Positions 19,852 through 57,326 of a DNA stretch of 64,000 bases are shown one piece after another. Within the stretch, counting starts at the first letter, position 1, and the number at the start of each line of letters is the position of its first letter. The notes under the pieces were generated by a model that saw nothing but the letters and a program-made list of their open reading frames with translations, searched no databases and was not told where the DNA came from. The translations under genes were made by a program, and so were the position numbers. This stretch comes from Bacteroidetes bacterium GWA2_40_15 (GTDB lineage: Bacteria; Bacteroidota; Bacteroidia; Bacteroidales; VadinHA17): NCBI GenBank assembly GCA_001768195.1, contig MENI01000097.1:4908-68907 (forward strand), given 5' to 3'.

Positions 19852-22122
19852 ATGGATAACACGCTGATGAAATACAATCTGATTTTTGCATTATTCTTGA
19901 TGACCCTCTTGCTCACCGCCTGTACAAAGCAACCTGCGAAGATGGACGGGCGCGGCAAACCTGGATTTCGCGTTCGTTCCGACTTTGCTGCGACGTTAAA
20001 CTCTGAAGTAGGATGGGCTGGTGCACTGAATGAGAATGTTCCCATTTACGCAGACCAACCTTTCCGCATTCGATTTGAATTGGAGCGCCCTGCAGGACCA
20101 ACTAGTGGTCGGCAATTCCGGCTTCAGTACAGACTAAATAGCGGAGTCTGGACCAATGTCGAGGCACACGACTTCCCCCACCCGGAACGCTATATTAGTA
20201 TGAATTTTAAACAACTTGAGGCCGGCACGCAACCTGAGGGATGGACTGTTGTGAAGGGCAATTCCTCAGAATTGGTCGTAGTGACCGATAACCATCAGAA
20301 CGCTCTACGAGCCAAATCGGATAAAGAGCCGCTTGTATGGCTCTTCACCCCACCTTGGGAGGCTACAGAAATTGCATCTCAATTCCGATTGGCCCCTGAA
20401 AATCACCGCGGGATCGCGTTCGTTGTGGGCTATGCCGATATCAGTAACTACTGTCTCGTACAGCTCGAGCCTACACCTGGCACGATACGTGTGAGCCATA
20501 TTATTGATGGGATAGAAAGGATTCTCGTCGAGAGAACCACCGTTATTACTACTGGCCAATGGCTCGAAATCGAAATTGAAACCGAAAACCGCAGGATTGA
20601 AATTAATTTCCAGAATGATATGCTGGAAATGGATGTCAAGCTTGATACTGATATCCCGCACTCAAAACTTGGATTTCAGGTTCCGTCGAATAGTACAATC
20701 GATTTTCGGAAATTCTCCTTCAATGGAGAAGCCAAAACCCCGCGAATCAGTATAGTTACCTGCCCAGCCTACGAGCACGGCATGTCAACCAACGATCTGT
20801 TGAAAGGTTCGGCCGCACCATTCCAGGCTGGCACTGGTATTAGTTTCGTCGAATTTACGCCTGTATGGAGCGGCGCGAATGTTCATGGCGAGTTCGAATG
20901 GCCGGTGGTCATTCGCCGGTTTGCTGATGGGGCAGTGACCAACAATGAAGGTGATACATTCGAATTTAGGATGATCGACACTGAAGGAACCGCACTGGGA
21001 AATGAACATAATCCAGCACTCCGCCTGTCCATCCCGCTCGGCCATGTTGGCGGGACATTCGTAGAAACCCCTGGCCGGATCGGCCCTTGGCAGGCCTCCA
21101 ACGGAAATCTTTACTTCATCATGGAACCGACAGAGACGGATAATATGTTCATGATGATAAAGTCCACGGACAACGGACGTACCTGGTACGAAATGGATGG
21201 AGCAAACCGCCCCAGGACAAATGACCTCGAATCGGTTGACTCGCGACTATTGGATAACACGATTCATATTATTCACCAAGTGACCCAATCTGTGCGTTAT
21301 CATACTTTCCGTACGTCTGATCATCCAACCCACCCTGATACCTGGGCTATCCGGGACGAGTTGGCTGGATCCGTGAACGCCATCGCCCAGAATGCGTCGA
21401 TGGTAGTGCGCTCAGACGGAAGCATAGTCGCGTTTTATCTTGGTACAGAAAAAATACATTACAGTATACGCTCGCCCGAAGGCACATGGAGCCAGGTAAA
21501 AACACTTGATCTCGACCTTCAACCCAACCAGGCTGGGCCACAAGCAGTGCTCGGTGCAAACGACATTATTCATCTCGCCTATTATGGAACCGATGGCACC
21601 ATCTGGTATCGACGGTTTCTTCCCGATGGTACCTTCACGTCAAGGCAACAGGTAGCGACAGGTGCCGGGACTTCAAGGGCGGAATATGGCGCAGTGCTTC
21701 CACTTCTCTTTATTCCCCACAAGAATGAGGTCGTCATTATTTATCGGCTCTTAAGCGGGAACCTTTGGGAACGACGGATTGTAAATGATGCCCCGCCTAC
21801 GGATGCAGTCATGGTAACCGATCTAAGGGTGGTCACCGACGCCGTCGACTCACATCAAGCCGGTGCCGATGCTGCCATCGACGGCGAGACAGTGTATGCG
21901 ATTTTCATTGCTGAGTCTTCCCGAAGCATCCTCAGCACGCACGACAATGGTGGATGGCAACCTCCGAAGCTCCGGGTCGACAACATACTTGGATCGTGGG
22001 TCCGTGGAAACGTATACACCCGCAAAGATGGCATGAGAGTATATGGATACATCTATGATGCGGGCTCCGATGGCGGTACAGGCATGAATCGATTCAGTGA
22101 GCTTGTATTGAACGGCAGATGA
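19852..22122 (+). CDS. lipoprotein with ConA/LamG-like (DUF1080-like) middle region and BNR/Asp-box beta-propeller-like C-terminal half
   Basis: 756 aa with lipobox LLLTAC. Canonical Asp-box STDNGRTW at nt 21163-21186. The middle string GWTVVKGN..ALRAK..GIAFVVGY is jelly-roll-like. G+C and CG-dinucleotide content are visibly higher than in the flanks. Confidence 0.55.
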   Translation: MDNTLMKYNLIFALFLMTLLLTACTKQPAKMDGRGKPGFRVRSDFAATLNSEVGWAGALNENVPIYADQPFRIRFELERPAGPTSGRQFRLQYRLNSGVWTNVEAHDFPHPERYISMNFKQLEAGTQPEGWTVVKGNSSELVVVTDNHQNALRAKSDKEPLVWLFTPPWEATEIASQFRLAPENHRGIAFVVGYADISNYCLVQLEPTPGTIRVSHIIDGIERILVERTTVITTGQWLEIEIETENRRIEINFQNDMLEMDVKLDTDIPHSKLGFQVPSNSTIDFRKFSFNGEAKTPRISIVTCPAYEHGMSTNDLLKGSAAPFQAGTGISFVEFTPVWSGANVHGEFEWPVVIRRFADGAVTNNEGDTFEFRMIDTEGTALGNEHNPALRLSIPLGHVGGTFVETPGRIGPWQASNGNLYFIMEPTETDNMFMMIKSTDNGRTWYEMDGANRPRTNDLESVDSRLLDNTIHIIHQVTQSVRYHTFRTSDHPTHPDTWAIRDELAGSVNAIAQNASMVVRSDGSIVAFYLGTEKIHYSIRSPEGTWSQVKTLDLDLQPNQAGPQAVLGANDIIHLAYYGTDGTIWYRRFLPDGTFTSRQQVATGAGTSRAEYGAVLPLLFIPHKNEVVIIYRLLSGNLWERRIVNDAPPTDAVMVTDLRVVTDAVDSHQAGADAAIDGETVYAIFIAESSRSILSTHDNGGWQPPKLRVDNILGSWVRGNVYTRKDGMRVYGYIYDAGSDGGTGMNRFSELVLNGR

Positions 22123-31732: not shown

Positions 31733-33229
31733 ATGAAAGAATTTATCCTGGCTCTCGACCAGGGAACAACAAGTTCAAGGGCGATTATCTTTGACAAAGA
31801 CGGTCGTCCGGTTGCAACAGCGCAAAAGGAATTCAGGCAATTTTTCCCAAAGCCGGGCTGGGTTGAACACGACCCTGATGAAATCTGGTCAACACAGGCA
31901 GGCGTTGCACTTGAGGCAATAACAAAAGCAAGGCTTTCCGGTAAAAATATTAAAGCAATAGGCATCACCAATCAGCGGGAGACAACAGTTGTCTGGAACA
32001 GAAAAACTGGCAATCCTGTTTATAAAGCCATCGTATGGCAGGACAGGCGCACTGCTGATTTCTGCGACAAGCTTAAGAAAGAGGGATATGACAAAAAGAT
32101 CCTTAAGAAGACAGGGTTGATAATTGATGCATATTTTTCTGCTACCAAAGTAAAGTGGATTCTGGATAATGTAAAGGGTGCACAAAAGCTTGCAGAAGAC
32201 GGAAAACTGGCTTTTGGGACAATCGACTCCTGGCTTGTATGGAAACTGACTGGTGGCCGACTTCATATTACAGATGTTTCCAATGCTTCAAGAACAATGC
32301 TTTACAATATTCATACACTCGAATGGGACAGTGAACTTCTGAAGATTTTCAATATTCCTTCAGCCATTCTTCCTGAAGTCAGATCATCAAGCGAGGTATA
32401 TGGAACCACCTCAGGACTATTTGAAACGGAAATTCCTGTGGCAGGCATTGCCGGCGACCAGCAGGCTGCATTGTTCGGACAGATGTGCATAGAACCGGGA
32501 ATGGTTAAGAACACCTACGGCACTGGATGCTTTATGATGATGAATACCGGTTCCAAACCTGTCGAATCAAAGAACAGGCTGCTGACAACTATTGCATGGA
32601 AAATTGACACGGAAACCATTTATGCACTCGAGGGCAGTATTTTCATTGGTGGAGCCGTTGTGCAATGGTTGAGGGATGGTCTTGGAATCATAAAAAGATC
32701 AGCCGATGTTGAGAAACTTGCAGCGAATGTGGAAGACAGCGGGGGAGTATACTTTGTACCTGCATTTGCAGGTCTTGGAGCGCCCTACTGGAACCAGCAT
32801 GCAAGGGGTACGATTGTAGGGCTTACCAGAGGAACTGCAGCAGCTCATATTGCAAGGGCAGCGCTCGACAGCATAGCCTACCAGACACTTGAAGTGCTGC
32901 TTGCAATGCAAAAGGATTCGGGTCTGAAAATACCTGAGCTAAGAGTGGATGGCGGGGCTACTGTGAATGACAGATTAATGCAGTTCCAGTCTGACATCCT
33001 CCAGGCAAAGGTTGTGCGTCCTGAAATTACTCAAACGACAGCTCTTGGCGCTGCTTATCTTGCAGGACTGGCAGTAAAATACTGGGGAAGTATTAATGAA
33101 ATAAAGAAACAGTGGGCAATAGACAAGGCCTTTACTCCCTCCGTTAAAGCGAAGGATACAAAAGTGCTTATTGACGGATGGCACAGGGCAGTTAAAGCAG
33201 CACAGGCCTGGGCGGGAGAGGGGAGATAA
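31733..33229 (+). CDS. glpK: glycerol kinase
   Basis: 498 aa. [24 protein letters not shown] and [15 protein letters not shown] are canonical GlpK strings. Confidence 0.95.
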
Positions 33230-33283
33230 GAAGAAGGGGAGAGGGGGAGAGGGGGAGAATGGGAGAATGGGAGAAAATGCAGA
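33210..33283 (+). repeat. polypurine (GGGAGA-type) tract of about 75 nt
   Basis: ggcgggagaggggagataagaagaaggggagagggggagagggggagaatgggagaatgggagaaaatg. Almost only purines on the plus strand. It spans the glpK stop. Confidence 0.7.
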
Positions 33284-33318
33284 AATACCTGAATTATTAA
33301 TGAAATAATTATAACATT

Positions 33319-34023
33319 ATGAACGCATTTTTTGCAGAATTTTTCGGAACCGCTATGATAATTGTTTTTGGAGGAGGAGTAGTGTCAAATGTTCTTCTTG
33401 CAGGGACAAAAGGAAACAACAGCGGCTGGATCGTGATAACCTTCGGATGGGCCGTCGGGGTATTTACAGGTGTGCTTATAGCAGCACCTGTAAGCGGTGC
33501 TCATCTGAATCCTGCTGTTACTCTGGCGCTTGTGCTGGCAGGTAAGTTCTCGATCTCACTTATGCCCCTTTATGTATGTGCCCAGCTGCTGGGAGCAATG
33601 TTCGGGGCATTTCTGGTCTGGGTTGCTTATAAAAAGCATTTTGATGCCACCCGGGATGGTGATCTAAAACTTGCTGTATTCTGCACTTCTCCAAATATCA
33701 GGAGTTATTGGTATAATATACTGACAGAGGTAATCGGCACATATGTACTTGCACTGGCCGTACTGTATATGGCTGAACCTGAAGTGGGACTGGGTTCGCT
33801 GAATGCCCTTCCCGTTTCTATAGTTGTCCTGGGGCTTGGCCTTTCCCTTGGCGGTCCGACAGGATATGCAATAAACCCGGCCCGTGATCTTGGCCCAAGA
33901 ATAATGCATTTTTTCCTTCCAATCCCTGATAAAAGAGACAGTGACTGGAAATATTCATGGGTACCGGTTGTCGGGCCACTCATTGGGGCATCCCTGGCTG
34001 CAATAATGTTTGATATGTTTTGA
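33319..34023 (+). CDS. glpF: glycerol uptake facilitator (MIP/aquaglyceroporin)
   Basis: Two NPA boxes (SGAHLNPAVT and YAINPARDLGPR). Confidence 0.9.
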   Translation: MNAFFAEFFGTAMIIVFGGGVVSNVLLAGTKGNNSGWIVITFGWAVGVFTGVLIAAPVSGAHLNPAVTLALVLAGKFSISLMPLYVCAQLLGAMFGAFLVWVAYKKHFDATRDGDLKLAVFCTSPNIRSYWYNILTEVIGTYVLALAVLYMAEPEVGLGSLNALPVSIVVLGLGLSLGGPTGYAINPARDLGPRIMHFFLPIPDKRDSDWKYSWVPVVGPLIGASLAAIMFDMF

Positions 34024-46868: not shown

Positions 46869-48698
46869 ATGAGACTTTTTGGAATGAATTTCAGGAACAA
46901 GCTTTCAAGAAGAAATTTCATCTCTTTGTCATCTCTTGGAATGGCTTTTGGAATTACCGGAGTTGCATTTAATAACAAGGGAAAACATATCCGGTCTGCT
47001 GATAATCTTGTCGAAGATCCTCTTAGAAGAGATCCGGAATCTGTTAAGAACCGGATAATTCATCTGCACCCTCAGGATAATGTGGCAGTAGCTCTTGAAG
47101 ATTTAGATGAAGGCACAAAGGTCTCAATAGATAATCTGCCATTAGTTCTGGATGATTTTATTGCTGCAAAACATAAATTCACTCTGTCCGATATTCCCGT
47201 TGGCGAAACAATCTATCTGTACGGAATTAAGGTGGGGATAGCTGTTAAAGCTATTAAGAAAGGGACAGCCATTACAACAGAAAATACTGTTAATGCAATC
47301 AGTGAGGTACAAAGAAACACTACCGGGAATTTCAAGTGGACACCCCCGGGGACCGACGCATTTAAGAACAGGAGTTTCATGGGATATCACAGGCCTGACG
47401 GACAGGTCGGTACTGCAAATTACTGGCTTGTAATTCCCATGGTCTTTTGTGAAAACAGGAACATTGAAATTATTAAGGAAGCAGTACTTTCTGAGCTTGG
47501 ATACCAACAGAGTTCTCCTTATATACAGTTCACCCGGGAACTGATTTCACAACACCAGGAAGGAGGTTCCCCGAAAGAGACTTCAAAGATTGCTCAAACA
47601 AAAATTCATGCCAACAATTACAAAACAAACCTTTTTAAGAATGTAACCGGGATAAAGTTTCTCACACATAGCGGAGGATGCGGGGAGACCAGACAGGATT
47701 CGGAAGAACTGTGCGGACTCCTTGCAGGATATATTACTCATCCCAATGTAGCCGGAGCAACAATTCTTAGTCTGGGTTGCCAGAATGCTCAGCTTTCCAT
47801 CTTACAAAAAGAGATAAAAAAACGTGATGCAAATTTCTCAAAGCCATATTTTGAGTTTGAGCAACAGGAAATCGGGACTGAGGATGAGATGATCAGACAG
47901 GCGATCCGGTCAATTGTTAACGGGCTTATTATGGCTGATCAGATTGAAAGAAAACCTGCACCACTTTCAAAACTTACAATAGGAGTGGAATGTGGCGGGT
48001 CAGATGGATTCTCCGGAATTTCAGCCAATCCTGCTGTCGGGCATGTTTCTGATCTGATTGTTGCTCTTGGAGGGTCAGTAATTTTATCGGAGTTTCCTGA
48101 ACTAAGCGGCGTAGAACAAAATATTTATGACCGCTGCACAAAACAGGTCCATGCTGATAAATTCCTGGATCTTATGCAGATGTATAATGCAAGAGCAGTA
48201 TCTGTTGGTTCTGGTTTCGATATGAATCCCTCTCCCGGGAATATTAAGGACGGATTGATTACAGATGCAATGAAGTCTGCAGGAGCTGCAAAAAAAGGCG
48301 GTACTTCTCCTGTTACCGGAGTATTTGATTATCCTGAGAAAGCTGATGGACCCGGACTTCATCTGCTTTGTACTCCGGGAAATGATGTTGAGTCGGTAAC
48401 AGCTGAAGTGGCTTCCGGGGCAAATCTGGTTTTATTCACAACAGGACTTGGAACTCCAACAGGAAATCCTGTTGTACCCGTAATAAAAATATCTACTAAT
48501 ACCTCTCTCTCTGAAAAAATGTCCGATATCATTGATATTAATGCAGGTACTATAATTGATGGAGAGGAGAGCATCGGACAAACTGCTGAACGGATTCTGA
48601 ATTATGCTATTGAAGTAGCCAGCGGGATAAAAGAACCTGCTGGTATCAGGAATGAGCAGGTTGATTTTATTCCCTGGAGGCGTGGAGTTTCCTTGTGA
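46869..48698 (+). CDS. UxaA-family sugar-acid dehydratase (altronate/galactarate dehydratase-like) with an N-terminal Tat-like extension
   Basis: SAF-like N-domain (HPQDNVAVALEDLDEG) plus the UxaA C-domain. It is preceded by about 60 extra residues including SRRNFISLSSLGMAFGITGVAF. Confidence 0.75.
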   Translation: MRLFGMNFRNKLSRRNFISLSSLGMAFGITGVAFNNKGKHIRSADNLVEDPLRRDPESVKNRIIHLHPQDNVAVALEDLDEGTKVSIDNLPLVLDDFIAAKHKFTLSDIPVGETIYLYGIKVGIAVKAIKKGTAITTENTVNAISEVQRNTTGNFKWTPPGTDAFKNRSFMGYHRPDGQVGTANYWLVIPMVFCENRNIEIIKEAVLSELGYQQSSPYIQFTRELISQHQEGGSPKETSKIAQTKIHANNYKTNLFKNVTGIKFLTHSGGCGETRQDSEELCGLLAGYITHPNVAGATILSLGCQNAQLSILQKEIKKRDANFSKPYFEFEQQEIGTEDEMIRQAIRSIVNGLIMADQIERKPAPLSKLTIGVECGGSDGFSGISANPAVGHVSDLIVALGGSVILSEFPELSGVEQNIYDRCTKQVHADKFLDLMQMYNARAVSVGSGFDMNPSPGNIKDGLITDAMKSAGAAKKGGTSPVTGVFDYPEKADGPGLHLLCTPGNDVESVTAEVASGANLVLFTTGLGTPTGNPVVPVIKISTNTSLSEKMSDIIDINAGTIIDGEESIGQTAERILNYAIEVASGIKEPAGIRNEQVDFIPWRRGVSL

Positions 48699-48782
48699 AA
48701 CCGGACCGGTTTTAAAACCTGTCAGGCAGACCAATATACACTTTAAATCATTGAGATTCTTTTTAATTATATAACACATAGT

Positions 48783-50504
48783 ATGGGAAAAAAATCTTAC
48801 TTAAGGAGCGTTGAATGGTTCGGGAAAAATGATAAAATGGGTTTCGTTCATCGCAGCTGGCTCAGAAACCAGGGTCACCCTGACCACATGTTCAGGGGAA
48901 AACCGGTAATTGGCATTTGCAATACATGGTCAGATCTGACTCCATGTAACGGTCATTTAAGAGAGTTTGCTGAAATTGTAAAACGGGGCGTTTACGAGGC
49001 CGGAGGTTTTCCGCTGGAGTTCCCTGTAATGTCTCTTGGTGAAACAATTATGAAACCCACAACAATGCTTTTCCGGAATCTTGCAAGCATGGATGTGGAA
49101 GAGACGATCCGGGCTAATCCTCTGGACGGTATTGTTCTTCTGACGGGTTGTGACAAAACCACCCCCTCAACACTTATGGGTGCCGCAAGTGTGAACCTTC
49201 CAACTATTGTAGTTCCCGGGGGTCCGATGCTAAATGGAAAGTTCAGGGGTAAAGAAATCGGATCGGGAACATCGACCTGGCAGATCTCTGAAGGATTAAA
49301 AGCCGGGACTTTTACAGTAGCCGATTTGACAGAGGCAGAAAGTTGCGTATCGCGGAGTGCAGGTCATTGCATGACAATGGGAACAGCATCGACAATGGCA
49401 GCCATGGTGGAAGCTCTTGGCCTTACTTTGCCGGGCGCTGCTGCAATACCTGCGGTAGACTCAAGAAAAAAAGTCATGGCACACCTGTCAGGCAACCGTA
49501 TTGTGGAGATGGTCAACGAAAACATGAAAATGTCGGATATACTGACAAGAGAGGCATTTGAGAACTCAATTATGATAAACTCAGCAGTCGGGGGTTCGAC
49601 TAACCTGATAATTCACCTGCTTGCACTGGCCGGCAGGATTGGTGTTGATCTGAATCTGGATGATTTTGACCGGTTGGGAAGTGATATGCCTCTGTTGCTG
49701 AATCTTATGCCTTCAGGAAAATACCTGATGGAGGATTTTTATTACGCCGGAGGATTACCAGTGATCATAGATCAGCTCAAAGATATCATTCATTCTGGTG
49801 CCATGACCATTAACGGGAAATCAATTGGTGAAAATTGTGCCGGTGCTCCCTGTTATAATTATGATGTAATAGCAACTCTGGAAAAACCACTGAAGGAGAA
49901 AGCCGGAATTGCTGTATTAAAGGGGAACCTGTGTGAGAATGGAGCTGTAATTAAGCCTTCGGCAACTTCAGGCGAATTGTTACAGCACAGGGGCAGGGCA
50001 GTTGTCTTTGAGAACATGGAAGATTACCATGCCAGGATTGATGATCCTGACCTCAATATTGACGAAAACTGCATAATGGTATTGAAAGGGGTAGGACCGG
50101 TTGGATACCCCGGAATGCCGGAAGTTGGAAACATGGAACTTCCTCAGAAACTTATCAAAAAGGGGATCACCGATATGGTCCGTATTTCTGATGGCCGCAT
50201 GAGCGGCACTGCATACGGAACTGTTGTTTTACATGTTTCTCCCGAATCTACTGTTGGCGGGACTCTGGCATTGGTGGAAAACGGAGACATGATTGACCTT
50301 GATGTAAAAAATCGGTCTCTGAAACTGGATGTTGCTGAAGATATTCTGAAAAAAAGGAGAGATTCCTGGATCCGCACGGTACCCGATGCCGATAGGGGTT
50401 ATGTACGTATGTTCATGCAGCATGTTGAACAGGCTGACCGGGGATGTGACTTTGATTTCCTTAAAGGGGGATCCGGTTCAGTAGTCCTCAGGGATTCGCA
50501 TTAG
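48783..50504 (+). CDS. IlvD/Edd-family pentonate (L-arabinonate/D-xylonate-type) dehydratase
   Basis: The N-terminus LRSVEWFGKNDKMGFVHRSWLRNQG..GKPVIGICNTWSDLTPCNGH and LLTGCDKTTP closely track the characterised arabinonate/xylonate dehydratase branch. Confidence 0.8.
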   Translation: MGKKSYLRSVEWFGKNDKMGFVHRSWLRNQGHPDHMFRGKPVIGICNTWSDLTPCNGHLREFAEIVKRGVYEAGGFPLEFPVMSLGETIMKPTTMLFRNLASMDVEETIRANPLDGIVLLTGCDKTTPSTLMGAASVNLPTIVVPGGPMLNGKFRGKEIGSGTSTWQISEGLKAGTFTVADLTEAESCVSRSAGHCMTMGTASTMAAMVEALGLTLPGAAAIPAVDSRKKVMAHLSGNRIVEMVNENMKMSDILTREAFENSIMINSAVGGSTNLIIHLLALAGRIGVDLNLDDFDRLGSDMPLLLNLMPSGKYLMEDFYYAGGLPVIIDQLKDIIHSGAMTINGKSIGENCAGAPCYNYDVIATLEKPLKEKAGIAVLKGNLCENGAVIKPSATSGELLQHRGRAVVFENMEDYHARIDDPDLNIDENCIMVLKGVGPVGYPGMPEVGNMELPQKLIKKGITDMVRISDGRMSGTAYGTVVLHVSPESTVGGTLALVENGDMIDLDVKNRSLKLDVAEDILKKRRDSWIRTVPDADRGYVRMFMQHVEQADRGCDFDFLKGGSGSVVLRDSH

Positions 50505-50535
50505 AACTTTATTGAACAGAATAAATCCTGGAAAT

Positions 50536-51363
50536 ATGAGATTATTCAAAACTAAAACAGGGATCGCAATTGAAAGGGATAATAATTATTACCTGATACT
50601 GGATAATTGGGATAGCTTTATTAATGATGATAATCTTTTTGCCAAAACCACAAACCTCTTATCCTCAGTGACCCCAAAAGATTCATCAGTTATTGACGAA
50701 TTACTTCCTCCGATTGGCAGTCAGCAGGAATTATGGGCTTGCGGTGTTACATATCTGAGAAGCAAAATTGGCAGGCAGGAAGAGAGCAAAGTTGCAGGAG
50801 GAGCAGATTTCTATGGAAAAGTATATGAAGCTGTAAGACCTGAGTGTTTCTTTAAAAGTAATCCGTCCCGTGTTGTGGGACATAACAACTTTGTTCGTAT
50901 AAGGAAGGACAGTACATGGGATGTACCGGAACCCGAGCTCACCCTTGTGGTTTCAGCATCTGGCAAAATTACAGGTTATACAATCGGGAATGATATGAGC
51001 AGCCGTAGCATTGAAGGAGAGAACCCTTTGTATCTTCCACAGGCCAAAACATATGATGGTTGTGCTGCATTGGGACCATGTATTTATATTTCGGAAACGC
51101 CATTTGACAGGAACAATAAAATTTATTTACAGATTATAAGGAATAAGCAGATTGTATTTGAGGACAGTATATCTGTCAGCCAGATGAAACGAAGCTTTGA
51201 AGAACTGGTAAAATATGTTTTCTTTGAGTGTAGTTTCCCTCATGGTTGTTTAATTATGACAGGTACCGGAATAGTACCCCCGGGCAGTTTTACATTACAG
51301 AGCGGCGATGTGATAAATATAACAATTGATTCAATAGGAAAATTGACTAATACCGTCAGTTAG
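50536..51363 (+). CDS. fumarylacetoacetate hydrolase-family protein (2-keto-3-deoxy-pentonate dehydratase-like, XylX/KdaD type)
   Basis: The track start at 50512 is TTG and the first ATG is at 50536. FAH C-terminal fold strings (ELTLVV.., GNDMSSRSIEGENPLYLPQAK) plus the gene context. Confidence 0.6.
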   Translation: MRLFKTKTGIAIERDNNYYLILDNWDSFINDDNLFAKTTNLLSSVTPKDSSVIDELLPPIGSQQELWACGVTYLRSKIGRQEESKVAGGADFYGKVYEAVRPECFFKSNPSRVVGHNNFVRIRKDSTWDVPEPELTLVVSASGKITGYTIGNDMSSRSIEGENPLYLPQAKTYDGCAALGPCIYISETPFDRNNKIYLQIIRNKQIVFEDSISVSQMKRSFEELVKYVFFECSFPHGCLIMTGTGIVPPGSFTLQSGDVINITIDSIGKLTNTVS

Positions 51364-51364
51364 A

Positions 51365-52678
51365 ATGACTTTTATTATTATTATCCTGGCTATTGCATTA
51401 CAGGTTTTTTTGTCAGTTAAAAAGGTAAATGCCTTTCTTTCGCTTTTAATCGTTTCTATTCTTTCAGGATTATTTCTTGGAATGCAGCCCGCTGCGATCA
51501 TCAAATCTGTTGAAACCGGAGTAGGAAGTACATTGGCAGGTCTGGCGCTTATTATCTGCCTGGGAGCAGTTCTTGGAAAAATACTGGAATCAAGCGGTGC
51601 CGCAAAGAAAATCTCTCTGACACTTATAAAAGCTTTTGGTATTAAAAATATCCAGTGGTCTTTGCTTCTTACAGGTTTTCTGGTTGGGATCCCGCTTTTT
51701 TACAATGCCGGATTTGTGATCCTGGTCCCACTGGTATTTTCAATTGCAAAGGAGACCCGTCTACCGCTCTTATATCTGGCGATTCCTATGGCTGCTTCAT
51801 TGTCAACTGCACATTGTTTTTTACCACCCCATCCGGGCCCGGTTATACTGGTAAATGCTTTTAAGGCAGATATGGGTAAGACCCTGATCTATGGTTTTGT
51901 TCTTGCGATTCCGGCCATAGTTCTAGCAGGTCCTTATTTCGGCAGATTACTTAAAAATGTAAAGATAAACCTTGTCGGCTTATTTGGTGAAAAGGAAGAT
52001 TTTACACCTGAAGAATTGCCTGCAGCATTCCCATCTTTCTTAATTGCCATGTTGCCGGTTTTGCTTATCACACTTTCAGTAATAGCCAACAGAGCTCTTA
52101 CTGATGGTTCTCTTCTGAAAAATATCTTAGTTTTTGCCGGAGATGCAAACGTAGCCTTACTGATAACCGTAATAATTGCATCATGGTTTTTTGGCTTACG
52201 TGCCGGTCATAAAATGGAAAATGTAATGAAATGGTTAAGTGATGGTATTTCGGGGATTGCCATTATTTTATTGATCATTACTGCCGGGGGTGTTTTCAAG
52301 CAGGTATTGAGCGACAGTGGTGCAGCTGACTATATTTTATCATTCAGCAAAGACTGGCAGATGCAACCATTTCTGTTTGCATGGCTGGTTACTGCCTGTT
52401 TAAGGGTTACAATTGGATCGGCAACGGTGGCTGCAATAACAGCTTCAGGGATAGTGGCTCCTCTGGTTGCAACGACTAATGTATCGCCTGAGCTAATGGT
52501 ACTTGCTGTAGGTTCCGGAAGTGTTTTTATGTCGCATGTAAATGATACAGCATTCTGGATGTTTAAAGAATTCTTCAACCTTTCTTTAAAACAAACTTTT
52601 TTTTCATGGACATTAATGGAAACTTCTATTTCATTTATCGGACTCATTGGAGTGTTTATTCTAAATTCTATAATCTGA
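51365..52678 (+). CDS. GntP-family gluconate/sugar-acid:H+ symporter
   Basis: 437 aa and polytopic. GntP-like N-terminus and a conserved central segment. Confidence 0.75.
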   Translation: MTFIIIILAIALQVFLSVKKVNAFLSLLIVSILSGLFLGMQPAAIIKSVETGVGSTLAGLALIICLGAVLGKILESSGAAKKISLTLIKAFGIKNIQWSLLLTGFLVGIPLFYNAGFVILVPLVFSIAKETRLPLLYLAIPMAASLSTAHCFLPPHPGPVILVNAFKADMGKTLIYGFVLAIPAIVLAGPYFGRLLKNVKINLVGLFGEKEDFTPEELPAAFPSFLIAMLPVLLITLSVIANRALTDGSLLKNILVFAGDANVALLITVIIASWFFGLRAGHKMENVMKWLSDGISGIAIILLIITAGGVFKQVLSDSGAADYILSFSKDWQMQPFLFAWLVTACLRVTIGSATVAAITASGIVAPLVATTNVSPELMVLAVGSGSVFMSHVNDTAFWMFKEFFNLSLKQTFFSWTLMETSISFIGLIGVFILNSII

Positions 52679-52692
52679 TTAAAAAATAAATT

Positions 52693-54174
52693 ATGAAGAC
52701 ATCTGAAATGATTAACCGGAAGGTTGATGCTGTCATGCAAAAGGCATGGAGCGCATTCAGGATTTACAGCAAATTTTCATTAAAAAGGAGAAAGTCCTTC
52801 TTGTATGCTATTGCAGATGAATTGGAAAAAGCGGGAGATGATCTGATAAAAACCTGCATGGAGGAAACCAACCTTACTGAAGCCAGATTAAAAAATGAGA
52901 AAGTAAGAACTGTTTTTCAGCTTCGGAGCTATGCTGACCATTGTGAAAGCGGTGACTGGCTTGATGCCAGGATTGATACCGCAATTCCGGACCGCACTCC
53001 ACCCAGACCGGATATCAGGAAGATGAATGTCCCGCTGGGCCCTGTAGTTGTATTTGGTCCCAGTAATTTCCCGTTTGCATACTCCACTGCAGGCGGAGAC
53101 ACGGCAAGCGCGCTGGCAGCAGGCTGTCCGGTAATTGTGAAAGCCCACTCCGGACATCTTAAAACATCAGAAATGGTAGCAGAACTTATTAAAATTGCTA
53201 CAGAAAAAATGAAAATGCCTGAAGGTCTGTTTTCCCATATATATTCTCCTTCACATTATATTGGAGAGGCACTGGTGAAGCATCCGTATACGAAAGCTGT
53301 CGGCTTTACCGGATCAGTTTCTGTGGGAACACAGCTTTTCAGATGGGGAAATGAACGTAAGGTCCCCATTCCGGTTTTCTCTGAGATGGGAAGTGTGAAT
53401 CCTGTATTCCTGATGCCCGGCAAAATAAAAGAATCATCTCAGGAAATAGCCCGAATGTATGCGGCATCAGTAACCCTGGGAGTCGGTCAGTTCTGTACAA
53501 ATCCTGGAATAATTATCGGCCTTGAAAGCAAGGATATGAACGATTTTCTTGCGACACTTAGTGAAGAAATCAGGAAGATCGCACCTGCAAAAATGCTTCA
53601 TAAAAAAATTGCAGATTCTTTTATGACCTTACGCGACAGCATCCTGATGGAAAATGGTGTTTCTGTGGTAGCAGTATCGGATTTGGAAAAGAGTGATTAT
53701 TGCGGTATTCCTACAATAGCAACAGTGTCTTCAGAAGAGTTTCTGAGGAACCCAAAATTGCAGGAAGAAATATTTGGTCCTTATTCACTTGTTGTGCGTT
53801 GTAAATCATTGGATGAGTATAGCCTTATTGCCAGGTCAATGGAAGGTCAGCTGACTTGTACAATGATGGCCACCGCCGATGATATGAAGAACAATGATGA
53901 TTTAATTGACGATATAAAAATACTTTGTGGAAGATTCATAATAAATGGTGTACCAACAGGTGTTGAGGTTTGTTTGAGTATGCAGCATGGAGGGCCGTTT
54001 CCTGCTACAACAGACGGTCGTTTTACATCTGTTGGAGGAGATGCATTGAGACGCTTTGCAAGACCTGTGGCATTTCAAAACTGGCCTGATGAATTATTGC
54101 CCGATGAGCTCAAAAATGAAAACCTGCTGAATATTTACCGCACGGTAAATAACCGGTTGACAAAAGATAGGTAG
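52693..54174 (+). CDS. aldehyde dehydrogenase, alpha-ketoglutaric-semialdehyde (2,5-dioxovalerate) dehydrogenase type
   Basis: RIDTAIPDRTPPRPDIRKMNVPLGPVVVFGPSNFPFAYSTAGGDTASALAAGCPVIVKAH is the hallmark stretch of the KGSADH subfamily. Confidence 0.75.
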   Translation: MKTSEMINRKVDAVMQKAWSAFRIYSKFSLKRRKSFLYAIADELEKAGDDLIKTCMEETNLTEARLKNEKVRTVFQLRSYADHCESGDWLDARIDTAIPDRTPPRPDIRKMNVPLGPVVVFGPSNFPFAYSTAGGDTASALAAGCPVIVKAHSGHLKTSEMVAELIKIATEKMKMPEGLFSHIYSPSHYIGEALVKHPYTKAVGFTGSVSVGTQLFRWGNERKVPIPVFSEMGSVNPVFLMPGKIKESSQEIARMYAASVTLGVGQFCTNPGIIIGLESKDMNDFLATLSEEIRKIAPAKMLHKKIADSFMTLRDSILMENGVSVVAVSDLEKSDYCGIPTIATVSSEEFLRNPKLQEEIFGPYSLVVRCKSLDEYSLIARSMEGQLTCTMMATADDMKNNDDLIDDIKILCGRFIINGVPTGVEVCLSMQHGGPFPATTDGRFTSVGGDALRRFARPVAFQNWPDELLPDELKNENLLNIYRTVNNRLTKDR

Positions 54175-54202
54175 GTACATGCCATGGCATGTACCTACCT
54201 AT
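54167..54202. repeat. perfect 36-nt palindrome (ataggtaggtacatgcca|tggcatgtacctacctat) that supplies both convergent stop codons
   Basis: Base-by-base pairing checked around the centre at 54184/54185. The TAG at 54172-54174 (+ gene) and the TAG at 54195-54197 (- gene) are mirror positions. Confidence 0.8.
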
Positions 54203-55478
54203 TTAGATATGGTATTGTCTGTGGCCCTTCAGGTAAAATGCAGATTGAAATATTTTTGCCTAGCCTGTTCCTGAAGTTTTCAATCAGGTCATAAATATCA
54301 TGACACCTCTTAATCCTGGAGATCTCCAGTTGTTCGTCGCTCAGGTTATCAGTATAGAGATATGTATCGGCCTTAAGCTGGATCAGGGCAAGAATCTGAG
54401 CTTCCCACTGGTCCTGCTTGGAAAAGCCAGGGGAACAGATCGTTTCAAGAAGCCGGACCGGACTTTCAGATTCACGTAACAGTTGACTGAATAATCCATG
54501 ATCGGGGAATCCATCACTGCATTCAGCTGCGGTGATTATAACTCCGCCTGGTTTAACTATCCTTGCCGCAGCGCTCATTCCCTTTACTGTCTGGTAAAGG
54601 TTCAGATCGAGTGGGTAACCCGAGTTTGTTGTTACTACAATATCAAATTCTGACGACACAGCTGCCATCGAGGTCTTTCTTACAGATTCTATCCCTTCAA
54701 GGTGCGATTTGATTATGTCGCCTGCGAATACCCCGGTTACCTCTTTTTCACTGTTCAGGGTAACGTTTACCAGGAAAGTGGCTCCGGCCATGATTGCTGC
54801 CTCCCTGACCTCTTCCCATATCGGATTTTTCTGAGTTACGCCCCATGATGCATTACTGTTGCCAATGTTTTTTGCACTGTGGTTGCCAAGAATGGTCTTA
54901 ATCCCTGCCATCCCGGGCATTACTGCCTTACCTCCCCCCGAGAAGCCGGCGAAAAAGTGCGGTTCAATGAATCCGGTAAGTATTTTAATGTTGCACGATA
55001 TCAGTTCTTTATTGACCTGGATTACATTTCCAAACGATGAAGTGCCAATTTCCTCCAGCTGACTTTCTTCAAAGGCATTATTCTGAACAATCCTGAAATT
55101 ATCATACAGATAACTGCCCAGCATGCTGCGTAACTCACTTTCGGTGTTTGGCCGGTGTGTTCCGGTTGCATTAAAAAGCAGAACAGATGTATAGGGTATA
55201 TGCTTTATCTCCCGGAGGATAGTCTCAATTATAAGTTTATTTGGAGTAGGTCGTGTGATATCATTGAAAATAATCGCTACCTTATCCTCTGATTTCACAA
55301 GTTGTTTAAGAGGAAGGGAACCTGAAGGTTTGCGTAAGGCTTTGGTAATTGCATCAGAAGCATCAGCTAAACCACTTAAATGCTGTGGTTCAATCACTGT
55401 GACATTCCAGTTGTCCCCAATTTTCATTTCAATGCCATGCTTCCCGTAAGCAAGTCTGACTGAATGATTATTCTCCAT
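54195..55478 (-). CDS. larA: LarA-family nickel-pincer-dependent 2-hydroxyacid racemase/epimerase homologue
   Basis: 427 aa. NDITRPTP, ATGTHRPN, GFIEPHFFAGFSGGGKA (cofactor-binding Lys) and GNHS strings match the LarA active-site pattern. Confidence 0.75.
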   Translation of the reverse strand: MENNHSVRLAYGKHGIEMKIGDNWNVTVIEPQHLSGLADASDAITKALRKPSGSLPLKQLVKSEDKVAIIFNDITRPTPNKLIIETILREIKHIPYTSVLLFNATGTHRPNTESELRSMLGSYLYDNFRIVQNNAFEESQLEEIGTSSFGNVIQVNKELISCNIKILTGFIEPHFFAGFSGGGKAVMPGMAGIKTILGNHSAKNIGNSNASWGVTQKNPIWEEVREAAIMAGATFLVNVTLNSEKEVTGVFAGDIIKSHLEGIESVRKTSMAAVSSEFDIVVTTNSGYPLDLNLYQTVKGMSAAARIVKPGGVIITAAECSDGFPDHGLFSQLLRESESPVRLLETICSPGFSKQDQWEAQILALIQLKADTYLYTDNLSDEQLEISRIKRCHDIYDLIENFRNRLGKNISICILPEGPQTIPYLNR

Positions 55479-55487
55479 TTGCGAAGA

Positions 55488-56462
55488 TTATTTTATTACA
55501 AATTTAGCGGTCTCTGGCCCGTCAGCTTCCTTTTTCTTTAAATAATTATTCATAATAACCACAATAGCGGGACATAAGATAGCAGTTACGATACACGATG
55601 CTGCTATCTGAGCCGTAGCAGTTGCTGCAAAGGGTAAATATGTGATATCTGCTGCTGCAAGGGCAGCAGGAGTTCCAATGGCATTACCTGCAGTGGAGCC
55701 TTCAGCAAAACCGGCAATTGTTCTTTTTTCGCCGAATGCCTTCAGCGAGTAATAACCCCCGAAGCCGGTAAGGAATGCTGTCATTACTCCAAGCAGGATC
55801 CCTGACAAACCTGCCCCGAATACATCTGATAAATTCATTGCTGCACCAAGTGGAAAAGCAAAGAAAGGGATAAGGAGTTTCTGGCCACCGGAAAGGAATG
55901 ATTTCATTTTGGGGTCCAGGTTTCCAAGGATCATTCCAAGGCTTATAGGTACTACTACTGCTATAAAGGCCAGAAAAGGGATTGATGCCTGGCCTGCTAT
56001 GCCAAGGGCCAGCATTGTAAGGAACGGACCATCATTTAATGAAAGAACTGAAACTGCGCCAACATCTGTTTCGTCGCCATATTCGCCAGTCAATGCAACA
56101 TAAAGCCCCCCGTTGGAGTTTGTCATAGCTGCAATAATTGCCAGTGGTGTTAAGCCGATCAATCCTGCAGGGCCGAAGATTTTTCCAACAACAAGTCCGA
56201 TAGCAACACCAATAGCATATTTTGAAACTGTAAGGATAAGCCCTTTTTTAAGAGCTTTAGGAGCCACTTTGAAGCTGATCTGGGAACCCATACAAAATAA
56301 AAAGACACCTAAAATAGCCAAAGCGCCATGTTTGAACATTGCTGTGGTAAATCCGCCTATCATTAATGCCTGAGGGAAAAGTGTATTAATGATTGCACCC
56401 AGTAACAATGGGATGATCATTAATCCTCCCGGTATTTTATCAATGGTATCTTTAATTCTCAT
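55488..56462 (-). CDS. kdgT: 2-keto-3-deoxygluconate permease family transporter
   Basis: 324 aa. MRIKDTIDKIPGGLMIIPLLLGAIINTLFP is a typical KdgT N-terminus. Confidence 0.75.
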   Translation of the reverse strand: MRIKDTIDKIPGGLMIIPLLLGAIINTLFPQALMIGGFTTAMFKHGALAILGVFLFCMGSQISFKVAPKALKKGLILTVSKYAIGVAIGLVVGKIFGPAGLIGLTPLAIIAAMTNSNGGLYVALTGEYGDETDVGAVSVLSLNDGPFLTMLALGIAGQASIPFLAFIAVVVPISLGMILGNLDPKMKSFLSGGQKLLIPFFAFPLGAAMNLSDVFGAGLSGILLGVMTAFLTGFGGYYSLKAFGEKRTIAGFAEGSTAGNAIGTPAALAAADITYLPFAATATAQIAASCIVTAILCPAIVVIMNNYLKKKEADGPETAKFVIK

Positions 56463-56525: not shown

Positions 56526-57326
56526 CTATTCAATCAACCTTAAAATGTCAGTCGGGATATTACGGTTCAGAATTGATATTTGCTGATGAGGATTCAGGAT
56601 AATCCCCTTTTCGGAGAATATCTGTTGCAGGGCCTGAAGAGCTTTTTCGGGAGTGTTGTTGTTCTTGCTCAGATGAGCAAGACAGATATGGCTGATATTG
56701 TCATTGATAATATCTGCCAGGAAAGCCGATGTCTGACGGTTTCCTAAATGACCATTGTCTGATTGTATTCTTGCCTTTAAAAATGGAGGGTATCTGCCAT
56801 TAATCAACATCTCTTCATCGTAATTCGACTCAATAACAAGCATATTGGCTGCTTTAATATATGGAGCAACTGTCTGGCAGATGTGTCCAAGGTCGGTGGC
56901 AATGGTTATTTTTTTCTCACCGGCACAAATGTGGAATCCTATGGTTTCAGGAGCATCATGACAAACCGGGAATGCTTCGATATCAAAACCAGCTATTTTG
57001 AATTTTTGCTGTACCGGTATTTCGCGGATACAGTCTCTGGATATTTTGTTTTTTGGAGAGAGAATACTCTTCCAGATTTTATCAGTGGTGAATGCAGGAA
57101 GACTCTCTTTCCTGGTAAGCACTTCCAGTCCTCTGATATGATCTATATGATTGTGTGTTATCAGAACACCCATAATAGTCCGCATGGAAACGTCAATATT
57201 CTTTAGAAATTTTCGTATAGATGTTGCTGAAATTCCGGCATCTATGAGTATTCCATGGAACTCGTTACCCAGGTAATAACAATTTCCGCTGCTTCCGCTG
57301 CTAAGACTGTAAAAATTCAATCTCAT
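56526..57326 (-). CDS. MBL-fold metallo-hydrolase (YycJ-like)
   Basis: SSGSSGNCYY and ITHNHIDHIRG motifs. Confidence 0.75.
   Translation of the reverse strand: MRLNFYSLSSGSSGNCYYLGNEFHGILIDAGISATSIRKFLKNIDVSMRTIMGVLITHNHIDHIRGLEVLTRKESLPAFTTDKIWKSILSPKNKISRDCIREIPVQQKFKIAGFDIEAFPVCHDAPETIGFHICAGEKKITIATDLGHICQTVAPYIKAANMLVIESNYDEEMLINGRYPPFLKARIQSDNGHLGNRQTSAFLADIINDNISHICLAHLSKNNNTPEKALQALQQIFSEKGIILNPHQQISILNRNIPTDILRLIE

Follow-up and report, generated by a model that had tools for sequence, protein, structure and literature searches.

The subject of this analysis is a pair of adjacent genes, encoding a KdgT-family permease and a homologue of the lactate racemase LarA, in a 64,000-nucleotide stretch of contig MENI01000097.1 (positions 4,908 to 68,907) from Bacteroidetes bacterium GWA2_40_15; the whole stretch is referred to here as the window. 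The LarA-homologue open reading frame (ORF) has an ATG start and encodes 427 aa, and the KdgT-family ORF has an ATG start and encodes 324 aa. The permease gene is upstream, the LarA gene is downstream, and 9 nt separate them. An ORF check agreed with the original prediction on the coordinates, the minus strand and the 9-nt gap, and the description of kdgT and larA as an operon-like pair is supported. The features of the locus, with the evidence by which each was assigned, are as follows.

54195..55478, minus strand: LarA-superfamily enzyme, Group-03-like, with a F174/F175/W357/E358 pocket (Pfam, NCBIfam, residue mapping, neighbour-joining tree)
55488..56462, minus strand: KdgT-family (TC 2.A.10) permease (PF03812)
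54167..54202, no strand: perfect palindrome, predicted bidirectional terminator (terminator scan and sequence)
56526..57326, minus strand: gene for a hydrolase of the metallo-beta-lactamase (MBL) fold (Pfam Lactamase_B_2)
46869..54174, plus strand: five-gene Weimberg-type sugar-acid operon, the convergent context of the pair (Pfam, NCBIfam, solved-structure matches)

The 36-nt palindrome has a 16-bp stem and a 4-nt CATG loop and overlaps both convergent stop codons, the 20-nt gap between these stops lying inside it. This hairpin is likely a bidirectional terminator that parts the permease/racemase unit from the pentonate operon. The MBL-fold gene, read in the direction of kdgT, precedes it by 63 nt and is possibly co-transcribed with kdgT-larA; it was seen in loci L001-L006 only and is not beside the pair in relatives L012 and L101. 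The same protein in the same synteny was found in two metagenome-assembled genomes (GCA_001769225.1 and GCA_003528105.1), and at least 24 contigs drawn from different samples encode an identical LarA protein.

The LarA homologue is a full-length member of the LarA superfamily (DUF2088), with a Lar_N domain (PF09861, 208.8 bits) at residues 11-213 and a LarA_C domain (PF21113, 107.9 bits) at residues 277-418. Its residues were mapped by alignment to the LarA of Lactiplantibacillus plantarum (LarA_Lp; 5HUQ). The catalytic and nickel-pincer nucleotide (NPN)-binding residues D72, R75, H107 (H108 in the reference), H173 (H174) and K183 (K184) are kept, as are H199 (H200), Y294, Q295 and K298, and most catalytic and cofactor residues are invariant among 28 homologues. 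The His of ATGTHR, the Lys of GGGKA and the His of GNHS, which had been picked out earlier as essential, correspond to His107, Lys183 and His199. The alignment revealed no active-site substitution, and the nickel-pincer active site is intact.

Substrate specificity in LarA_Lp involves F175, F176, W358 and T359; lactate racemases carry F,F,W,E/Q at these positions, GntEs carry E,V,A,H, and malate racemases carry H/Q and K at the last two (PMC11770544). The window protein has F174, F175, W357 and E358 (F,F,W,E), which is the code of PDB entry 2YJG and conforms to the residue rule for the lactate racemase (LAR) group (PMC11770544). It also passed the NCBIfam lactate-racemase equivalog NF033504, by a narrow margin (491.5 bits against a cut-off of 460); a Group-1-like homologue reached 604 bits on that model. 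The malate racemase (MAR) models NF052593 and NF052595 were not passed (351 vs 500 and 309 vs 462 bits), and the W and E at the W358- and T359-equivalent positions depart from the malate-racemase code. Scores were 280 bits on the LarAH10 model (cut-off 540) and 81 bits on the LarAH14-16 model (cut-off 740). The MAR, LarAH10 and LarAH14-16 assignments were dropped, each falling below its NCBIfam cut-off, and a GntE-type assignment was dropped on the F,F,W,E code and on the score with the hexonate-epimerase model NF052594 (33.3 bits against a cut-off of 500). The original prediction had drawn an analogy with gluconate 2-epimerases; with this code and the failed hexonate-epimerase model, the analogy is unsupported, and by these measures the LarA homologue is not a GntE-type gluconate 2-epimerase. 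The predicted pocket is small, hydrophobic and of the lactate-racemase type, and would fit lactate or glycerate, not gluconate.

The Glu358 codon lies at about 54405-54407. The T359-equivalent residue is Gln in L012 (79% identical), L007, L008, L014 and L101, and among 91 aligned sequences (88 from loci and three PDB references) 65 have the code FFWQ and 16 have FFWE. In characterised enzymes, E or Q at the T359 position tracks lactate versus glycerate preference; LarAH43, which prefers glycerate, carries Gln, and LarAH51 carries Glu (PMC11770544). LAR-group enzymes racemise lactate, glycerate and 2-hydroxybutyrate and are weaker on 2,4-dihydroxybutyrate and 4-deoxy-tetronates, C4 dihydroxy acids already costing them 100- to 1000-fold in efficiency (PMC11770544).

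Placement in the superfamily was examined with Group 03 references from Dataset S2 of Desguin et al. 2020 (PMC7583248). The window protein is 44-46% identical (330-377 bits) to the Group 03 references LarAH3 SERP0256, Desor_0905 and AMED_3084. Identity is 33-37% to LarA_Lp, 2YJG and a Clostridium Group-1 protein and 32-37% to Group 2 (Sar), with 219-264 bits to the references of these two groups. A neighbour-joining tree of 31 sequences (417 columns, 100 bootstraps), which is simply distance-based and weakly supported at its deeper nodes, placed the protein in a subclade with other Bacteroidota and Anaerolineae (85% support), which joined the Group 03 references at only 53% bootstrap. The Group 1 clade had 100% bootstrap, and the window protein lay outside it. 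By identity and tree position, the enzyme is assigned to the uncharacterised Group 03 (‘LAR?’) branch and not to the proven lactate racemases; the group was so named since only its residue logo resembles lactate racemases (PMC7583248). A place among bona fide lactate racemases, alongside a lactate permease elsewhere, had been named at the outset as a sign against a sugar-acid role. That description held only in part: the residue code and the NCBIfam equivalog agree with it, but the protein falls outside proven Group 1; as for the lactate permease, a 61%-identical homologue clusters with a lactate-permease-family gene.

This homologue lies in an apparent operon in L010 and L011, in the order Fe-ADH, LarA, a split transketolase (N and C parts), an AP_endonuc_2 isomerase, a Lactate_perm-family transporter and then a LacI regulator. 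On nomenclature, Table 1 of PMC7583248 gives LarAH3 as a Streptococcus pneumoniae protein; the datasets give Staphylococcus epidermidis SERP0256 / Q5HRD7_STAEQ.

The permease matches Pfam PF03812 (KdgT) over its full length (406.1 bits, positions 1-303 of the 305-position profile). On the kdgT equivalog TIGR00793 it scored 245.8 bits against a cut-off of 453.8, which sets it apart, at equivalog level, from the characterised 2-keto-3-deoxygluconate (KDG) permease. A metagenome scan with a KdgT alignment gave 80 loci, in which neighbours were counted within 3.5 kb of the permease gene; context counts were made by tblastn with a few seed proteins and many metagenome contigs are short, so the figures are lower bounds. 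Neighbours were a DUF1537 kinase in 34 loci, PdxA in 27, LarA in 16, a UxaA-like gene in 15 and glycerate kinase in 8. The best NCBIfam match of the DUF1537 four-carbon acid-sugar kinase was D-threonate kinase, below the cut-off. Since the equivalog cut-off was failed and the neighbours are DUF1537 and PdxA genes, not KDG kinase or aldolase, the annotation ‘2-keto-3-deoxygluconate permease’ is doubtful for this KdgT subfamily. In three Bacillota loci (L095-L097, e.g. GCA_000746025.2 CP045798.1), a KdgT 71% identical to that of the window follows a UxaA-like dehydratase split into a 96-aa SAF protein and a 385-aa GD_AH protein, with a gene for a sigma-54 PrpR_N-type activator upstream of the unit.

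The KdgT-LarA adjacency recurs well outside the window. Sixteen of the 80 metagenomic KdgT loci have LarA within 3.5 kb, sharing the strand of the permease gene in every case and immediately next to it in 14; the usual companions of these pairs are DUF1537 kinase/PdxA or glycerate kinase. A second scan, of one genome per species with a LarA-clade alignment as query, also gave 80 loci, whose contexts are very diverse and whose closest match is 58% identical. The largest neighbour-ORF cluster in these genome loci was rejected as an artefact of antisense ORFs overlapping larA in GC-rich genomes. In seven Bacillales genomes (Oceanobacillus, Bacillus, two Brevibacillus, Neobacillus, Planococcus and Halalkalibacter), a divergent CdaR-type regulator is followed by glycerate kinase, a KdgT-family permease and LarA, and larE, larB and larC come directly after larA in several of these clusters. 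The KdgT-linked LarAs of the Bacillales are 66% identical to LarAH3, which makes them true Group 03 members. Overall, KdgT-linked LarAs fall in three clades: Group-1-like (51-60% identical to LarA_Lp/2YJG, code FFWQ), Group 03 (FFWQ) and a third clade (FMWQ). Gln occupies the T359 position in all LarAs adjoining glycerate kinase. The adjacency was found at 23 or more independent loci across the three LarA clades. LarA homologues occur in about 16% of bacterial species (PMC11770544), and the repeated same-strand adjacency is therefore far beyond chance. Among the papers found, the KdgT-LarA pairing is unreported, and searches for ‘glycerate racemase’ and for KdgT with glycerate kinase and lactate racemase gave nothing relevant. 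No KdgT is listed in Table S1 of Desguin et al. 2020 (PMC7583248), and both LarA and KdgT go unmentioned in a 2026 paper on tetronate pathways. A permease-racemase module tied to glycerate or four-carbon acid-sugar genes is a useful lead and apparently new to the literature.

The neighbouring operon, on which the pair had been said to converge as a set of genes of the pentonate/alpha-ketoglutarate semialdehyde pathway, consists of five genes.

46869-48698, plus strand: UxaA/GarD-like dehydratase
48783-50504, plus strand: IlvD/Edd sugar-acid dehydratase
50512-51363, plus strand: KdaD-like FAH dehydratase
51365-52678, plus strand: GntP permease
52693-54174, plus strand: aldehyde dehydrogenase (ALDH)

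The top solved match of the IlvD/Edd dehydratase was PuDHT (8EJ0, 826 bits), followed by L-arabinonate dehydratase (5J84), and the FAH protein is closest to the 2-keto-3-deoxy-D-arabinonate dehydratase KdaD (2Q18, 191 bits). By these domain and structure matches the five genes are a Weimberg-type set leading from pentonate to 2-oxoglutarate, in agreement with the original prediction. The operon as a producer of lactate or glycerate, with a FAH hydrolase of the L-fuconate/L-rhamnonate type, was considered and ruled out on the KdaD match; the didehydro-deoxy-rhamnonate hydrolase model gave the FAH protein only 22 bits. PuDHT has been assayed on D-gluconate, D-galactonate, D-xylonate, L-arabinonate, L-threonate and D-glycerate (PMC10107998). 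The N-terminus of the UxaA/GarD-like ORF (46869-47050) contains a twin-arginine-type motif (LSRRNFISLSSLGMAFG; LSRRNFI), which is kept in homologues 71-75% identical to it (L012, L103) while the flanking N-terminal residues diverge. Conservation of the motif amid diverging N-termini suggests that the dehydratase may be exported to the periplasm by the twin-arginine translocation (Tat) system, which would be unusual for its family.

Synteny in Bacteroidales relatives separates the permease from the racemase. In L012, the same five-gene operon lies between KdgT and LarA, with KdgT facing the operon convergently on the ALDH side; at the other end 91 nt separate LarA from the UxaA-like gene, and the two are transcribed divergently. 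In L099, L100 and L103, KdgT (88-89% identical) flanks the operon without LarA, and an operon flanked by KdgT is also present in L105. L101 has a two-gene unit in which KdgT (84% identical) and LarA (62% identical) overlap, and no sugar-acid operon in the vicinity. In L007, L008/L009 and L014, LarA (67-73% identical) has Pyr_redox_2 and AHSA1 genes nearby and neither KdgT nor the operon. The idea of a conserved KdgT-LarA-operon unit in Bacteroidales was rejected, since homologues P0005, P0009 and P0015 (67-73% identical) come after Pyr_redox_2/AHSA1 genes and lack KdgT, and the three loci with KdgT and operon alone contradict it as well. KdgT is a constant neighbour of the operon in this lineage, and LarA is a variable passenger that tends to sit with KdgT. 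Because LarA is adjacent, at the far end or missing while KdgT stays, the link between LarA and the pentonate operon is weak, and the adjacency follows mainly from the KdgT-operon synteny of the Bacteroidales lineage. A conserved pair of a thioredoxin-reductase-like Pyr_redox_2 gene and an AHSA1 gene precedes LarA in L007 and L014 and lies near LarA in L008/L009; an ABC-F-type ATPase gene follows LarA in L007 and L101.

Taken together, these observations lead us to favour, by a little over even chances, the reading that the pair is an ‘import and invert’ module that handles a C3-C4 2-hydroxy acid, with lactate and glycerate the likeliest candidates. The 9-nt gap in the window, the overlapping KdgT and LarA genes in L101 and the clustering of the 61%-identical homologue with a lactate permease support such a module. 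The permease probably imports the LarA substrate, which would be a short (C3-C4) 2-hydroxy acid, most likely lactate or glycerate and less likely a four-carbon acid sugar. The LarA homologue would then invert C2 by the proton-coupled hydride transfer known for LarA: the hydride would pass to the cofactor, which leaves a 2-keto intermediate, and then be given back on the other face, His107 and His173 serving as acid and base. One stereospecific downstream enzyme could in this way use both enantiomers. The enzyme is predicted to carry NPN loaded at Lys183 and His199, both of which are present. As to the substrate itself, lactate is tentatively placed first and glycerate, also a possible substrate, second; a C4 acid is rather unlikely and a pentonate or hexonate improbable. 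Glu358, as in LarAH51 and 2YJG, gives a slight lean to lactate, and the glycerate-kinase and tetronate genes that recur around KdgT-LarA pairs speak for glycerate or a C4 acid sugar. With Group 03 membership and glycerate kinase or DUF1537/PdxA as neighbours elsewhere, a role for the window enzyme in stereoinversion of a small sugar acid (glycerate, tetronate) is plausible. The earlier proposal of a sugar-acid 2-epimerase feeding a dehydratase pathway thus loses its gluconate-type activity, keeps a weak link to the operon, and survives as a weaker form concerning a C3-C4 acid.

Several observations weigh against the module. In about 70 of the 80 genome loci of the window LarA clade, KdgT is missing from the neighbourhood, and the window contains none of the genes that could supply the downstream enzyme (glycerate kinase, lactate dehydrogenase, DUF1537 kinase or PdxA). 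KdgT stands beside the operon without LarA in L099, L100 and L103, which indicates that the permease may serve the operon. The sole Group 03 enzyme tested, LarAH3, had been recovered from inclusion bodies by refolding and acted on none of the seven substrates tried (PMC7583248). No Group 03 enzyme has displayed activity, and substrate prediction from the four-residue code therefore extrapolates from Group 1.

A broader form of the module, in which KdgT and a LarA-family enzyme form an unrecognised, widespread catabolic unit that handles the smallest sugar acids in their ‘wrong’ C2 configuration, is possible and, in our estimate, rather doubtful. Under it, the enzyme would be a nickel-pincer glycerate racemase where it occurs with glycerate kinase and CdaR, and a tetronate 2-epimerase (D-erythronate/D-threonate) where it occurs with DUF1537 kinase and PdxA2, and the KdgT subfamily would carry C3/C4 acid sugars, not 2-keto-3-deoxygluconate. 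If this were true, the window enzyme would be the Bacteroidales version, and Group 03 would for the first time have a physiological role and a substrate. Very few enzymes use NPN, those of the LarA type among them. The KdgT-LarA neighbourhoods provide concrete substrates to test (L/D-glycerate, erythronate/threonate) in cultivable hosts that carry them (Brevibacillus, Neobacillus and Planococcus), and the pattern suggests that many ‘2-keto-3-deoxygluconate permease’ annotations are wrong. The window enzyme itself should not be read as a gluconate/pentonate-type epimerase feeding the Weimberg pathway.

Among the alternatives, the one that survives best takes the annotations literally: a lactate racemase for lactate metabolism would lie by chance next to a true 2-keto-3-deoxy-acid permease of the operon, which might take up what the apparently Tat-exported, periplasmic UxaA-like dehydratase produces. 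Passage of the NCBIfam LarA equivalog and the F,F,W,E code shared with 2YJG and LarAH51 agree with this, as do the flanking of the operon by KdgT with or without LarA (L012, L099, L100, L103 and L105) and the conservation of LSRRNFI at the UxaA-like N-terminus in three diverged homologues. However, the 9-nt spacing and the gene overlap in L101 argue for co-translation of permease and racemase, the KdgT-LarA loci in three clades far exceed chance, and the permease fails the kdgT equivalog cut-off and belongs to a subfamily found mostly with DUF1537/PdxA and not KDG genes. We regard this explanation as unlikely.

It is quite unlikely that the LarA homologue is instead a C5/C6 sugar-acid 2-epimerase supplying the operon's (2R,3S)-specific IlvD-type dehydratase or its UxaA-like dehydratase, for example by converting L-ribonate to L-arabinonate, D-lyxonate to D-xylonate or mannonate to gluconate. 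The pair adjoins the operon, LarA is divergent from the UxaA-like gene in L012, and UxaA-like genes lie near KdgT-LarA in L072, L114 and L169. The acids on which PuDHT was assayed are all 2R, so a C2 epimerase would broaden the substrate range of the dehydratase. LarA and the UxaA family are also linked elsewhere, LarAH group 5 being 100% associated with COG2721 (PMC7583248), and Group 03 is biochemically uncharacterised. Against this, the pocket is F,F,W,E and not the GntE code, the hexonate-epimerase hidden Markov model falls far below its cut-off, and LAR-type efficiency already drops steeply on C4 dihydroxy acids. In addition, the same KdgT-operon synteny exists without LarA, the L101 pair occurs without any such operon, and a strong terminator hairpin stands between the transcription units.

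The genes for cofactor synthesis bear on a further alternative. As the original prediction had stated, larB, larC and larE are absent from the window: their domains were not found by a Pfam scan (40 of the 51 non-overlapping window ORFs of at least 90 aa), by a six-frame motif grep of the 64-kb window or by tblastn of the window with LarE, LarC and LarB seeds from the Bacillales loci. They were also not found in the 10-kb flanks of the Bacteroidales-type relatives L007-L014 and L101. Such absence would agree with an orphan LarA homologue without NPN, either non-functional or using another cofactor or chemistry, but this is very improbable given that all catalytic and cofactor residues are intact and most are invariant among the 28 homologues (57-100% identical), that the occurrence of an identical protein in so many samples is consistent with purifying selection, and that larBCE are often unlinked from larA, with 33-42% association even in Group 1 (PMC7583248).

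Elsewhere in the window, a glycerol kinase (FGGY) gene adjoins a gene for a MIP-family channel (31733-34023); the two resemble an ordinary glpK-glpF pair rather than a LarD-type lactate channel tied to the LarA gene 20 kb away. The sole GC-rich stretch of the window (19852-22122; 0.507 against about 0.41) coincides with a 756-aa ORF that has a lipoprotein-type signal (LLTAC) and no Pfam match.

Compared with known systems, the closest reference group to the window protein is Group 03 (Desguin et al. 2020), with which it shares the catalytic residues and the F,F,W,Q/E code; its subclade (Bacteroidota, Anaerolineae and others) is, however, separate from the reference members, and the published context of the group consists of larE/B/C, FAH, amidohydrolase and enolase-superfamily genes with KdgT unlisted (PMC7583248). 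With the Group 1 enzymes, L. plantarum LarA (5HUQ) and Thermoanaerobacterium 2YJG, it has in common the fold domains, the NPN and catalytic residues, the FF loop and the Trp, and 2YJG (‘lactate racemase apoprotein’) also has Glu at the T359 position. It differs from them in its low identity (33-37%) and in having no lar operon, lactate permease or LarD channel nearby. GntE1/GntE2 (LarAH19/20) and LarAH15 share the superfamily and the mechanism; the link to sugar-acid catabolism is theirs, and their E,V,A,H code is missing from the window protein. The likeness of the permease to the KdgT family (PF03812 / TIGR00793) is a full-length Pfam match that does not reach the equivalog cut-off. Finally, LarAH43 and LarAH51 (PMC11770544) share the LAR code, with E in LarAH51 as in the window protein and Q in LarAH43. 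The physiological roles of promiscuous lactate-racemase-like enzymes are stated as unknown (PMC11770544); LarAH43 and LarAH51 racemise glycerate, 2-hydroxybutyrate and lactate, which fits the glycerate-kinase-linked KdgT-LarA clusters.

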